A stretch of 58,698 bases of DNA from Deltaproteobacteria bacterium (GCA_011056835.1 DSDU01000015.1:1-58698), one strand, 5' to 3'. Shown: positions 244 through 49,717, counted from the first letter of the stretch. The notes: generated by a model not told the origin, from the sequence alone. Made by a program: numbers and translations.

Positions 244-1407
244 ATGAGCATCAGAGATAAGTACGCCATTGTCGGTGTCGGTTATACGCCGCAGGGCCGT
301 ATTCCCGGACGGACGGAACTGAGTTTTCATCTGGAGGCAATCATCAATGCAGTTGATGATGCCGGCCTTACAAAGAAAGATGTTGACGGACTCATTTGTT
401 ACCGGCATTTCCCCCCGGCGTCGGATTCTTATGACATCACACCATACATGGTGGCCCAGCATTTGGGAATGACGCCATCTTTCATCAGCCAGGATGCAAA
501 CTGATCGCGAAGTCAACTACAGCTCGCAGTTGGCGCGCTTGAATCAGGTTTCTGCACGTACGTTGTTATCTCCTACGGGCACAATGCCGCATCCAGTGAC
601 AGCATGACGAGGATGCTCATGGCACTCGGCCAGGACGAGGAGGCATTCGGACACTTCGGGGCAACGGGGAGCTACGCCCTGGCGGCACGAAGGGCAATGC
701 ATGAATTCAACACCGGACCGGAGACATGGCAGCACATTGCCGTGGGCCAGCGCAAGTGGGCAAACCTGAACCCTCTGGCCATGACATATAATCGCACCAT
801 GACATATGACGACTACATGAATGCCCGGTGGCTTGTTGAACCCTTCCGGCTTTTCGATAATTGCCTGGTTTCAGACGGGGGCCGGGCGTACATCATCACT
901 TCAGCCGAACGTGCCCGGGATTTGAAACATCATCCCGTCCTCATTGCCGGCCTCGGGCAACACAACCCGGCGGGTTACCCCCAGAGCGCAACCTTTCTCG
1001 CCGGACCGACAGGGGCACGGATCGCCGGTGAAACAGCATTCCGCATGGCCGGTATTACCAGGAATGATATCGATGCATGTCAGATTTACGACTGTTTTAC
1101 CTACACTGTTGAGATTACCCTGCAGGATTATGGGTTCTTCAAACCCGGTGAAGGTGCGGACTGGTTCCGGGGCGGCACCATCGAGCCCGGCGGCAGCATG
1201 CCTGTGAACACCTCAGGAGGACAGCTTTCGGAAGCATACTTCATGGGCCTGACGCCGATTACTGAAGGAGTGATGCAGCTCATGGGACGTTGCGGCAAGC
1301 GACAGCTCGGCCCGCAAACGGGAACGAAGGAACCGGAGATCATCCTGTGCAGCGACAACGGCGGAATCCTGCAGTGCAACACCACCATTATTCTAAGGAG
1401 GGCGTAG
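244..1407 (+). CDS. Thiolase-like protein (SCP-x/Ltp type, DUF35-partnered) with one in-frame TGA at 502-504 (codon 87). Either a selenocysteine candidate or a nonsense pseudogene.
   Basis: SD GGGAGGG lies just upstream of ATG 244. Track ORFs 157..504 and 604..1407 share one frame, and 505-603 has no other stop. The joined 387-aa product has thiolase-like blocks: KYAIVGVGYT at the N-terminus, ...ALESGFCTYVVISYG, NTSGGQLS and SDNGG near the C-terminus. Confidence 0.7.
506..538 (+). other. Stem-loop immediately 3' of the in-frame UGA, in a SECIS-like position
   Basis: Pairs 512-518 with 528-534 (GUCAACU/AGUUGGC, one G-U) and 507-509 with 536-538. There is a small internal loop and a 9-nt apical loop at 519-527. 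The hairpin starts 2-3 nt after the UGA. Confidence 0.35.
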
Positions 1408-1838: not shown

Positions 1839-2110
1839 GAGGATCATTTGAGATATCCATAAGTGAAAAAAGAATCTCGAGGTCCGGGGCTGATGGAATG
1901 TATCGTCATGCCGGCAGTTCGCCGAGGCACATAAAGCTGTTTCTTTGAGATCAACACTGATGACCGTTGTTGCTTTCCGCGGGGATTTTTTATTTTGAGA
2001 TCCATACCGATCAAAGAGATTATAGATCCGTACGGCATGGACGGGGAGAAACCGTCCGGATCATCATGACGTCAAGCTTTTCGATCACTCTGCTCGCTCA
2101 TGTTCCGGCT

Positions 2111-2617
2111 TTATTTCCTGCCGAACTCAGCGATCACTTGATCAACCCATTTTCTGATCCGTTCATCCGTTACATCGGACTGATTTTCCTGATCGATGGC
2201 AAGCCCGACGAACGCACCGTTTTTCACCGCCCGCGACTCGTCGAATCGATATCCGCGAACAGGCCATGAACCGACGACCGTCGCACCCCTCCCGGATACT
2301 TTTTCATAGAGAATTCCTATGCTGTCGACAAAGGTGTCGGGAAAGAGATCCTGATCCCCCAGGCCGAACAGCGCCACCTTTTTGCCTGACAAATCAACCT
2401 GATCTAATCCCGAAATAAAAGCATTCCAGTCATCCGGCAGTCCTCCCTCCCCCCAGGTGGCGGTACCGAATATTATGAGATTATAATCATTTAACGTGTC
2501 AACGGGAGTCGAAGCAACATCATACAGTTTTGTCTTTCCCCTGCCGATGATCTCACGTATTTTTTCTGCAATACTCTCGGTAGCACCCATGGTGGATCCA
2601 TAGAATATGCCTATCAT
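2111..2617 (-). CDS. Long-chain flavodoxin
   Basis: MIGIFYGSTMGATE (FMN phosphate loop), TWGEGGLPDDW and LFGLGDQ motifs. Start chosen at the Met preceded by GGGAGAAG. Confidence 0.9.
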   Translation of the reverse strand: MIGIFYGSTMGATESIAEKIREIIGRGKTKLYDVASTPVDTLNDYNLIIFGTATWGEGGLPDDWNAFISGLDQVDLSGKKVALFGLGDQDLFPDTFVDSIGILYEKVSGRGATVVGSWPVRGYRFDESRAVKNGAFVGLAIDQENQSDVTDERIRKWVDQVIAEFGRK

Positions 2618-2650
2618 CGCTACTTCTCCCTTGGACAGTCCTTGCATTTT

Positions 2651-2863
2651 TCAGTGCTTCCCTGTCATGGTCAGCGTATCGGTAACGATCTGGAGCGGCT
2701 GAAAGGATTGTCCCGTCATCGTGAGCGTTTCCGTGTAGATCTGCCGGGGCTGATCGGCTTTCCCGGTCATGGTGAGGGTCTCCGTGGTCAGCCGTGACGG
2801 AGATCCGCCCTGGGCAAAGCCATACTGAGCTCCCGCCACAGCCGCCAGCGCCGTGACGGGCAT
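2651..2863 (-). CDS. Small protein (70 aa) with three tandem 17-residue repeats carrying T[ED]TLTMTG
   Basis: Repeat cores are ACGGAGACCCTCACCATGACCGGG, ACGGAAACGCTCACGATGACGGGA and ACCGATACGCTGACCATGACAGGG. Differences fall almost only at third codon positions of this frame. The ORF stops 33 nt before the flavodoxin start. No clear SD. Confidence 0.55.
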   Translation of the reverse strand: MPVTALAAVAGAQYGFAQGGSPSRLTTETLTMTGKADQPRQIYTETLTMTGQSFQPLQIVTDTLTMTGKH

Positions 2864-3004
2864 ATTTCATCAGCCCGTATCATACAAATGCTGTTTTTTA
2901 CGTGCCTTGTCGTATCATTGCAGTGTCAACGGTTGAGACTCTTGACACTATCGGCAGCCGGATATCAAGGTACAAGATATTCCAGCCGTGTTTAACCGCC
3001 GGAG

Positions 3005-4192
3005 TTAACTGAAGAGCCCTGACTGTTCATACTCCTCAATCTCGCTGTCGGTGTAGCCCAGCTCTCTGAATACGTCTTTCGTATGGGTTACCGAACCGAT
3101 GGTGGCTCCAATGCTCCGATACTCAGGTTTTGTTTCGGAAAATTTAATAGGGCACGCGATCTGCTCAACCGTTCCGCCATCGGGCAGGGGAAGCTTTACC
3201 ACCATTTCTCGCTCCTTCGCCAGAGAGTCATTGAACATCTCTGTCAGGGTCATGACCGGCTCAACGCAGGCATCGGTTTCGTTGAAGATCGCCACCCACT
3301 CGTCCCGCGTCTTTGTCAGGATGATCTTACGGATTTCTTCTTTCACCGCATTAATGTTTTTGGGAGATACACCTCCCGGGATCAGATCGGGGCGATTGAT
3401 CGCGTTGAAAAAATTGGTGTAGAACTGGGGTTCAAGCCCTCCGAAGCTTATATACCGACCGTCCTTCGTTTCGTAATAATCGTAGAGCGATCCGCCGTTC
3501 AGCAGGATTCCTTCAAGCTCGGGGTCCTTGCCATCCACCAGGGCACCGGCACCATACATGGCATTGAATGCGATCATGCCGTCGGTCATTGAGATATCGA
3601 TAAACTGTCCCTTCCCCGTGACGCCCCGATGGATTACTGCAGCAAGAATGCCGATAACGGCATTATAGGAACCGGACGCCACGTCGGCGATCTGCATCCC
3701 CACGAGACTGGGACCACTGCTTTTCCGTCCCGTGTAGGAGGCGAGACCGGAACGGGCAATGTAATTCATGTCATGACCTGCCCGCATTGCCATTGAACCC
3801 GTCTGGCCGTAACCGGTAATTGAGCAATAAATAACGGCAGGATTCACTGCCTTCAGACTTTCATAATCAAGCTTGAATTTCGCCATCACACCCGGTCGAA
3901 ACTGCTCGATGACGACATCATAATCGTCAAGAAGCCGATGAATGATCGGGATTGCCCGGGGATCTTTGAGATTCAGGGTCAATAAGCGTTTATTCCTCCC
4001 CAGCATGGCCGACGCCGCGGAGATCTTCGTCCCGGGAATAAAAGGCGGGAAAAAATCCACCAGATCGGGACGGGAACCGGAAACGACTCTCAGTACATCG
4101 GCTCCCAGATCGGCAAGAACCATGGTGGCATACGGGCCGGGAAGCAGAGTGGTAAAATCCAATACCTTCAGTCCTTCGAGAGTACCTGACAT
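3005..4192 (-). CDS. Family III CoA-transferase (CaiB/BaiF / alpha-methylacyl-CoA racemase family)
   Basis: N-terminus LEGLKVLDFTTLLPGPYATMVLADLGADV is typical of the family. SD AGGAGGG lies 4 nt upstream of the ATG. Full length, 395 aa. Confidence 0.85.
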   Translation of the reverse strand: MSGTLEGLKVLDFTTLLPGPYATMVLADLGADVLRVVSGSRPDLVDFFPPFIPGTKISAASAMLGRNKRLLTLNLKDPRAIPIIHRLLDDYDVVIEQFRPGVMAKFKLDYESLKAVNPAVIYCSITGYGQTGSMAMRAGHDMNYIARSGLASYTGRKSSGPSLVGMQIADVASGSYNAVIGILAAVIHRGVTGKGQFIDISMTDGMIAFNAMYGAGALVDGKDPELEGILLNGGSLYDYYETKDGRYISFGGLEPQFYTNFFNAINRPDLIPGGVSPKNINAVKEEIRKIILTKTRDEWVAIFNETDACVEPVMTLTEMFNDSLAKEREMVVKLPLPDGGTVEQIACPIKFSETKPEYRSIGATIGSVTHTKDVFRELGYTDSEIEEYEQSGLFS

Positions 4193-49640: not shown

Positions 49641-49717
49641 TGGTAGCGGGGGCCGGATTCGAACCGACGACCTCTGGGTTATGAGCCCAACGAGCTACCT
49701 GACTGCTCCACCCCGCG
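49641..49717 (-). tRNA. Initiator tRNA-fMet (anticodon CAT)
   Basis: The minus strand reads CGCGGGGTGGAGCAGTCAGGTAGCTCGTTGGGCTCATAACCCAGAGGTCGTCGGTTCGAATCCGGCCCCCGCTACCA. It has an unpaired 1:72 (C:U), three G:C pairs closing the anticodon stem, an encoded CCA, and is near-identical to E. coli tRNA-fMet. Confidence 0.95.

Follow-up and report, generated by a model that had tools for sequence, protein, structure and literature searches.

The 70-codon open reading frame (ORF) at positions 2651..2863 is a degenerate representative of a family of hypothetical secreted proteins that is so far uncharacterised, and not a new kind of element. It lies on the minus strand of a 58.7-kb stretch of DNA (58,698 nt) from a Deltaproteobacteria bacterium, which was analysed as a whole and is referred to here as the window. 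In our preferred reading, to which we assign a probability of about 0.6, the ORF represents a decaying, 5'-truncated relic of a small Sec-exported repeat protein, located on a transcript upstream of a flavodoxin gene. The divergence of its repeat cores exclusively at third codon positions is a fossil of the selection that acted on the intact ancestor. A possible but clearly less probable alternative is that the truncated ORF still works. In that case it would be translated from the ATG at 2863 without an SD and co-transcribed with flavodoxin, and it would yield either a weakly exported protein with a mature part of 52 residues and three strands or a cytoplasmic one, acting independently of the partner protein described below.

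The ORF and its repeats

The 70-residue translation of 2651..2863 given in a preliminary description of the window was reproduced exactly. It comprises three units with an exact spacing of 17 residues and T[ED]TLTMTG cores (Table 1). At the DNA level these units form one tandem array at 2658..2786 with a period of 51 nt and 2.5 copies, which is the only tandem repeat detected in the window by Tandem Repeats Finder. Pairwise comparison of the 8-codon cores gives 5, 5 and 6 differences in 24 nt, while codon positions 1 and 2 are identical throughout. All seven distinct variable core sites are third codon positions, for which the chance expectation is (1/3)^7 = 4.6e-4.

No curated family covers the peptide, in agreement with its earlier placement in no known family. 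Searches of Pfam, NCBIfam and PDB sequences with the peptide, the family profile, the partner protein and about 20 members of the repeat superfamily described below returned no model for either the repeat or the partner. Rfam yielded nothing relevant, neither for 2000..3600 at E <= 10 nor for the whole window at the gathering threshold.

Table 1. Coordinates of the ORF, its relic 5' region, its neighbours and the intact loci used for comparison. Positions refer to the window unless a locus is named.
Feature	Position	Strand	Description or basis
70-codon ORF with stop codon (2651..2653)	2651..2863	-	Shortened copy of a small secreted TxTLTMTG repeat protein; homologues P0001-P0006
Codons 1-18 (MPVTALAAVAGAQYGFAQ)	2810..2863	-	Leftover h- and c-regions of the ancestral signal peptide; alignment to intact proteins
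Repeat unit 1 (TETLTMTGKADQPRQIY)	2735..2785	-	Ancestral units 1 and 2, fused via an in-register 51-nt deletion
Repeat unit 2 (TETLTMTGQSFQPLQIV)	2684..2734	-	Orthologue of ancestral unit 3
Partial terminal unit 3 (TDTLTMTGKH)	2654..2683	-	Orthologue of ancestral unit 4
Tryptic peptides expected from the ORF			LTTETLTMTGK, QIYTETLTMTGQSFQPLQIVTDTLTMTGK, ADQPR
Relic of the ancestral start region and first 13 codons	2864..2912	-	DNA alignments against five intact genes
Flavodoxin gene	2111..2617	-	Pfam Flavodoxin_1, E 8e-25; own strong SD; downstream of the ORF
CoA-transferase family III gene	3005..4192	-	E 6e-95; upstream of the ORF, where intact loci have the 164-176-aa partner
Perfect 8-bp inverted repeat AGTGTCAA-N12-TTGACACT	2922..2949		Intergenic DNA between CoA-transferase gene and ORF
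Partner gene	L014:7412-7906	+	Ahead of the repeat gene
Partner gene	L001:5409-5906		Ahead of the repeat gene
Partner gene	L009:1233-1730		Ahead of the repeat gene
Partner gene	L020:5001-5504		Ahead of the repeat gene
Partner gene	L024:5001-5531		Ahead of the repeat gene
Intact repeat gene	L014:8001..8306		

Intact homologues and their partner gene

A protein search with HMMER identified six homologues (P0001-P0006) with E values from 1e-24 to 7e-34. In the reverse direction, the intact homologue P0004 matched the window at 2654..2848 in a tblastn search (E 3e-24). P0002 is 93% identical to the window ORF and originates from a syntenic contig, where it was predicted by a gene caller in an ENA assembly; this call is a point in favour of a working gene. 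The other homologues comprise 101 aa, or 121 aa with an over-called start, and end in ...MTGKR. Homologues with a named source come from a 'Deltaproteobacteria bacterium' MAG and from an uncultured Syntrophaceae MAG, and the window sequence itself recurs in sludge and biogas-fermenter metagenomes.

The intact precursor has 84-101 aa and three to four units. Its N-terminus reads MKKxSARxRLMVCISALALLxAAxGVQYGFAQ↓SGYPxRVT (the arrow marks the cleavage site), followed in the 101-aa forms by four 17-residue units of the pattern T-[DE]-T-[LM]-T-M-T-G-x-S-x-Q-P-h-x-h-x. This is a Sec-type signal with a charged n-region, a 17-residue hydrophobic core and the small-x-small site AQ↓SG.

Fourteen intact loci were read, and the upstream side was readable in 12 of them (L001, L003, L009, L011, L012, L014, L017, L018, L020, L022, L023 and L024). 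In all 12 the repeat gene follows, at a distance of about 95 nt, a gene for a secreted partner of 164-176 aa. The partner has a signal peptide as well (MKSxIKIIxCLVxxIPxVAFA↓G), and no relative of it was found in Pfam, NCBIfam or the PDB. A search with the partner returned eight hypothetical proteins without any functional name, and the two-gene arrangement was found wherever the context was read. Beyond this pair no gene is conserved around the intact loci. Partner and repeat gene are a conserved two-gene secreted module of Syntrophaceae-type MAGs.

The number of repeats varies from three to four within the family, which answers a question raised in the preliminary description. L018:4001-4255, which has the partner gene upstream and encodes a full signal peptide, is intact with 84 aa and three repeats, while its close relative L017:1063-1368 encodes 101 aa with four. 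The comparison of the two indicates an independent loss of one 51-nt unit, and hence a change of repeat number by unequal recombination within the family. Since L018 is intact, in-register loss of a unit occurs, is tolerated and is not damaging in itself. The three repeats of the window copy are therefore compatible with a working gene.

The window copy shares 53-69% identity with the intact family over the common part. It resembles the unnamed 84-101-aa family, represented by JXC33_01300 from MAG Zod_Metabat.781 (the P0004 protein), in its T[DE]T[LM]TMTG 17-residue units, the xSxQP[LM]x[VI] linker, the FAQ↓(S/G)G junction and the C-terminal ...MTGK(R/H). In contrast to this family, the window copy is devoid of the first 13 codons, the SD, the start codon, one repeat and the partner, and it is found in another neighbourhood.

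Damage at the 5' end

In DNA alignments with five intact genes, homology extends beyond the ATG at 2863 to about 2912. In the intact family the SD is GAGAGGA, 5-7 nt ahead of the start codon. The corresponding sequence in the window relic is GACAAGG, and no start codon follows; depending on gap placement, the ancestral ATG is aligned with GTA or TAA. In addition, 1 nt has been inserted in the relic and 2 nt have been deleted. Two TGA codons, at 2870..2872 and 2867..2869, are in frame with the present ORF, and because the codons just upstream of the ORF are TGA TGA AAT (2872..2864), a longer reading is impossible. The ATG at 2863 arose at the 2-nt deletion, within the former hydrophobic core.

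The lack of a clear SD had been named as a weak point of the ORF, and rightly so: the ATG at 2863 is preceded by ACGGGCTGATGAAAT, which contains none. This argues against a working gene, since both the intact homologues and the neighbouring flavodoxin gene have strong SDs.

The segment MPVTALAAVAGAQYGFAQ has no Lys/Arg n-region, comprises 11 moderately hydrophobic residues and retains the cleavage-type sequence FAQ↓GG. Only the last 18 residues of a complete Sec-type signal are left, without any positive charge and with about half of the hydrophobic core missing, which is a further argument against a functional product. Judged from its sequence, however, the remaining 11-residue hydrophobic stretch with the FAQ↓G site may still permit weak export. 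The short Ala-rich N-terminus, which had been taken as a feature of the peptide, is thus what remains of a longer signal peptide after the destruction of its start, SD and charged n-region. The same damaged 5' structure is present in the syntenic contig L002 and in six to eight sludge and biogas metagenome assemblies and is therefore not an assembly artefact.

Two other readings of this region were rejected. The overlapping 105-codon frame at 2553..2870 of the minus strand is present, as had been described, but has no homologues and runs into the start of flavodoxin. It begins at the surviving ancestral Met11 codon, which is retained as an out-of-frame ATG at 2868..2870. Owing to the 2-nt deletion it is out of the ancestral frame, and it stays open only because the repeat DNA contains no stops in that frame. 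A programmed +1 shift joining MKY to PVTAL... found no support: an SD is likewise missing ahead of the ATG at 2870, and two more lesions are located upstream.

Window and L002 show no differences in about 160 nt of upstream sequence or in a stretch of about 145 nt spanning the repeats. Between these segments (window 2822-2849, minus strand) six substitutions and one 3-nt in-frame indel are clustered within about 25 nt of the signal remnant; GCGCTGGCGGCTGTG and GCGGGAGCT, separated by a gap of three positions, are aligned with GCCCTGACGGCGGTAGCTGCGGGAGTT. Slippage in GC-rich low-complexity sequence, a small conversion tract or relaxed constraint are possible causes.

Genomic neighbourhood

The true start of flavodoxin is most likely 2617 (MIGIFYGS, preceded by an AGGGAGA SD; 168 aa as called in syntenic L002), which leaves a gap of 33 nt from the stop codon of the ORF. 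L002 is syntenic with the window at 98% DNA identity, in the order RF3, glycosyltransferase, CoA-transferase, ORF and flavodoxin. The preliminary description had placed the ORF directly upstream of flavodoxin and suggested examining whether this position is conserved in relatives. Outside the window, the ORF adjoins flavodoxin only in L002, which belongs to the same near-identical lineage, and none of the 14 intact loci shows this adjacency. Flavodoxin is a neighbour, not a conserved partner, and the adjacency is a local accident.

The partner gene is absent from the whole 58.7-kb window (tblastn, nothing below E 1.6). A working window gene would therefore have to dispense with a partner that lies upstream in every readable intact locus.

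Further features of the window were recorded. The inverted repeat in Table 1 is positioned just upstream of the point where homology to the intact loci ends, and its second arm includes TTGACA; an operator, a weak hairpin and a scar left by a rearrangement are all conceivable. Two overlapping ORFs are located at 604-1838 on the plus strand (overlap 1290..1407), the first encoding 267 aa and the second 182 aa with a CxxC...CxxC pattern. They seem to resemble the pairs of thiolase-like and DUF35/OB-fold proteins of syntrophs degrading fatty acids or aromatic acids. The only RNA gene found in the window by Rfam or ARAGORN is a tRNA-Met (CAT) at 49641-49717 on the minus strand.

Selection on the intact genes and on the window copy

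The six more divergent pairs of intact genes show pairwise dN/dS values of 0.16-0.30 (Nei-Gojobori); the near-identical pair L011/L014 has a value of 0.5. The low values identify the family as a real, constrained protein, and the intact homologues keep the frame. The checks of dN/dS and of frame conservation that had been proposed earlier thus came out in favour of a protein-coding family. Accordingly, the earlier conclusion from the third-position divergence, namely a protein repeat under purifying selection and not a DNA repeat, holds for the family. It does not extend to present selection on the window copy, because the pattern was inherited from the intact ancestor and carries no information on this point. 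Orthologous repeats in L009 and L001 use the same repeat-specific synonymous codons as the window, e.g. ACG..CTC ACG ATG ACG GGA CAA in unit 2 and ACC GAT ACG.TG ACC ATG ACA GGG in the last unit. Hence, these codons predate the truncation and record past, not present, selection.

Compared with its closest intact relative, the window copy shows a dN/dS of 0.56-0.65. Changes on the window branch were polarised by parsimony with five other sequences, which is a crude procedure. By this count the branch carries 15 nonsynonymous and 5 synonymous changes, small numbers to be compared with a neutral expectation of about 2.8:1 from the site counts. The ratio departs from an omega of 0.2 (p = 4e-4) and from the 35 nonsynonymous to 44 synonymous changes between pairs of intact genes (Fisher p = 0.02). 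Among these changes are Y35S, S33G and L71R (the last in QP[LM]Q), at positions that are otherwise invariant or always hydrophobic; Y35S and L71R are non-conservative. Both the ratio and the non-conservative exchanges argue against a working gene.

The distribution of the changes points in the other direction, with 14 changes in the 75 nt of the signal remnant against 6 in the 135 nt of the repeat part. This difference could mean that the repeats are still under some constraint. Fast evolution is usual for signal peptides and is a caveat on the count for the window branch. The 70 codons downstream of the lesions are open in every strain compared and the single indel between window and L002 is in frame, which speaks for a gene in use. 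As the strains of this lineage are about 98-99% identical, however, the open frame is a weak test. Eight sludge and biogas assemblies show substitutions only, and these strains are too close for a test of frame decay.

Possible traces of transcription are in line with a working gene as well. Contigs from the only RNA-labelled run with the locus cover 2555..2798, at low depth and with the strand not distinguishable, so that the repeat part may be transcribed.

Taken together, we infer that the window copy is no longer exported or selected, because it has lost the initiation signals, the n-region and the partner and shows a neutral-like ratio of nonsynonymous to synonymous changes. The decaying relic would have originated as follows. 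A rearrangement may have placed the repeat gene, without its partner, between the CoA-transferase gene and flavodoxin. SD and start codon would have been mutated away, indels would have disrupted the first 13 codons, and one 51-nt unit would have been lost in register. The remaining frame would then begin at the ATG formed by the 2-nt deletion in the old hydrophobic core. Most likely, the relic is carried passively on RNA reading into flavodoxin.

A superfamily of 17-residue repeats

A search of 1.84 billion representative sequences with the family profile (A3) returned 100 proteins at E <= 1e-3, 26 of them at E <= 1e-10, with lengths from 74 to 4240 aa. The window ORF is placed in this superfamily by the strict 17-residue spacing of its x-L-x-M-T-G core and by the match of P0002, its near-identical homologue, to the profile (E 4e-28). 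Cores are spaced by exactly 17 residues in 312 cases, the next commonest spacing accounting for 22. A consensus built on 354 units reads T-[DGE]-x-L-x-M-T-G-x-R-F-x-P-V-x-[IV]-x; in it G8 is invariant and T1, L4, M6 and T7 are 80-93% conserved. Each protein contains 3-21 copies, and the array is often located at the extreme C-terminus and ends in MTGxR.

Most of the members inspected have an N-terminal signal peptide. Some also contain PG_binding_1, PASTA, EF-hand or Kre9/KNH Ig-like domains, and these fused domains point to the cell envelope or the exterior. The Syntrophaceae subfamily differs from most of the superfamily by Thr at positions 3 and 5 (TxTxTxT), S10 and Q12, in contrast to R10, F11, P13 and variable positions 3 and 5. 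Moreover, many superfamily members are large, multi-domain proteins, unlike those of the subfamily. The repeat has no match in Pfam, NCBIfam or PDB sequences, and a literature search for an LxMTG, TLTMTG or MTG repeat gave nothing. As far as these sources show, the superfamily of 17-residue repeats is undescribed.

Predicted structure and resemblance to known repeat proteins

AF2 prediction with a 42-sequence alignment of four-unit segments (pLDDT 68, pTM 0.52) gave four strands of 10-11 residues. Each starts at position 14 and extends to position 7 of the following unit, and 6-residue G-x-R/S-x-x-P loops connect them. The same topology was obtained with the 7-sequence family alignment at a pLDDT of 57. 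In the predicted strands V14, V/I16, T1, T3, T5 and T7 lie on one face, and x15, I17, E2, L4 and M6 on the other. Each unit would therefore contribute one beta-strand (from position 13/14, where 13 is the P13 of the superfamily consensus, to T7 of the next unit) and a G-x-[R/S]-x-x turn. On the basis of these models the intact protein may be regarded as an extracytoplasmic beta-sheet repeat module with a Thr ladder accompanied by V/I on one face and L/M on the other. Such a module probably forms assemblies, either on its own or together with its constant partner, or attaches to a surface. The best Foldseek hit in the PDB had E 0.58, which is not significant, and we therefore assign no fold; among the non-significant hits at the end of the list, beta-solenoids and functional amyloids are enriched.

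Small size, secretion, a few imperfect repeats of about 17-23 residues, richness in T, Q and G and a predicted all-beta structure are features shared with curli CsgA, Pseudomonas FapC and bactofilins, to which neither sequence nor fold gave a significant match. In contrast to curli and Fap proteins, the AF2 models, which are of moderate confidence, show long antiparallel strands and not a strand-turn-strand solenoid. No genes of the csgEFG, csgG or fapF type were present at any locus read. A second resemblance concerns the TxT-ladder ice-binding (antifreeze) beta-helices and the 16-residue repeats of bacterial ice-nucleation proteins, which have a short strict period, alternating Thr residues in the strands and a flat Thr-rich face. 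Among the 17-residue repeats, by contrast, a single subfamily, from bacteria of anaerobic sludge and sediment, has Thr at positions 3 and 5, and there is neither a fold match nor a link to a cold habitat. The likeness to the TxT ice-binding ladders is a resemblance only.

A far-reaching interpretation would treat T-x-x-L-x-M-T-G as an undescribed extracytoplasmic beta-sheet repeat (about 100 representative clusters) and the Syntrophaceae pair as a new self-assembling or surface-binding system, with the window form live, partner-independent and co-expressed with flavodoxin. We consider this combination doubtful.

Peptide precursor or regulatory element

The preliminary description suggested a repeat-core precursor or a small secreted or structural peptide. 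The latter fits the intact family. The former, a RiPP-type precursor whose three repeats would be core peptides cut out and modified by an enzyme, is very improbable. Its only support is the appearance of repeated cores and the small size. The intact homologues begin with a classical Sec signal and not with a leader. A modifying enzyme, the lack of which had been noted for the window, was found neither in the window neighbourhood nor at the homologous loci, where genes for radical SAM, YcaO, lanthipeptide, protease or ABC-export functions adjoin in 0 of about 14 cases. Instead, the sole constant neighbour is the secreted 164-176-aa protein without a Pfam match. Furthermore, the occurrence of the 17-residue unit in up to 21 copies in large PG-binding, PASTA or EF-hand proteins is the pattern of a structural repeat.

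Equally remote is a role as a regulatory element of flavodoxin, be it a Thr-rich leader peptide (attenuator) or a structured or protein-binding 5' UTR RNA with repeated GGGA: the position on the same strand, 33 nt upstream, the 13 Thr codons of the ORF and the repeated A(C/N)GGGA would suit it, but there is no terminator-like hairpin between ORF and flavodoxin (2618..2650), the folding energy is no better than that of shuffled sequences (z = -0.73), Rfam gives no match even at E 10, the intact homologues never adjoin flavodoxin, and the variation is structured by codons.

Implications

For annotation, the window ORF is best labelled a probable pseudogene or a truncated homologue of a hypothetical secreted repeat protein; neither a flavodoxin-linked peptide nor a RiPP precursor would be an appropriate reading. 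For descriptions based on sequence alone the case contains a caution. Repeat divergence restricted to third codon positions documents past selection, and it can persist after start codon, SD and export signal have been destroyed.

Two findings reach beyond the window copy. The 17-residue repeat is widespread in secreted bacterial proteins and is so far without a Pfam or NCBIfam model, which makes it a candidate for curation and structure determination. The same applies to the two-gene secreted module, which is tightly conserved in syntrophic Deltaproteobacteria from anaerobic digesters.
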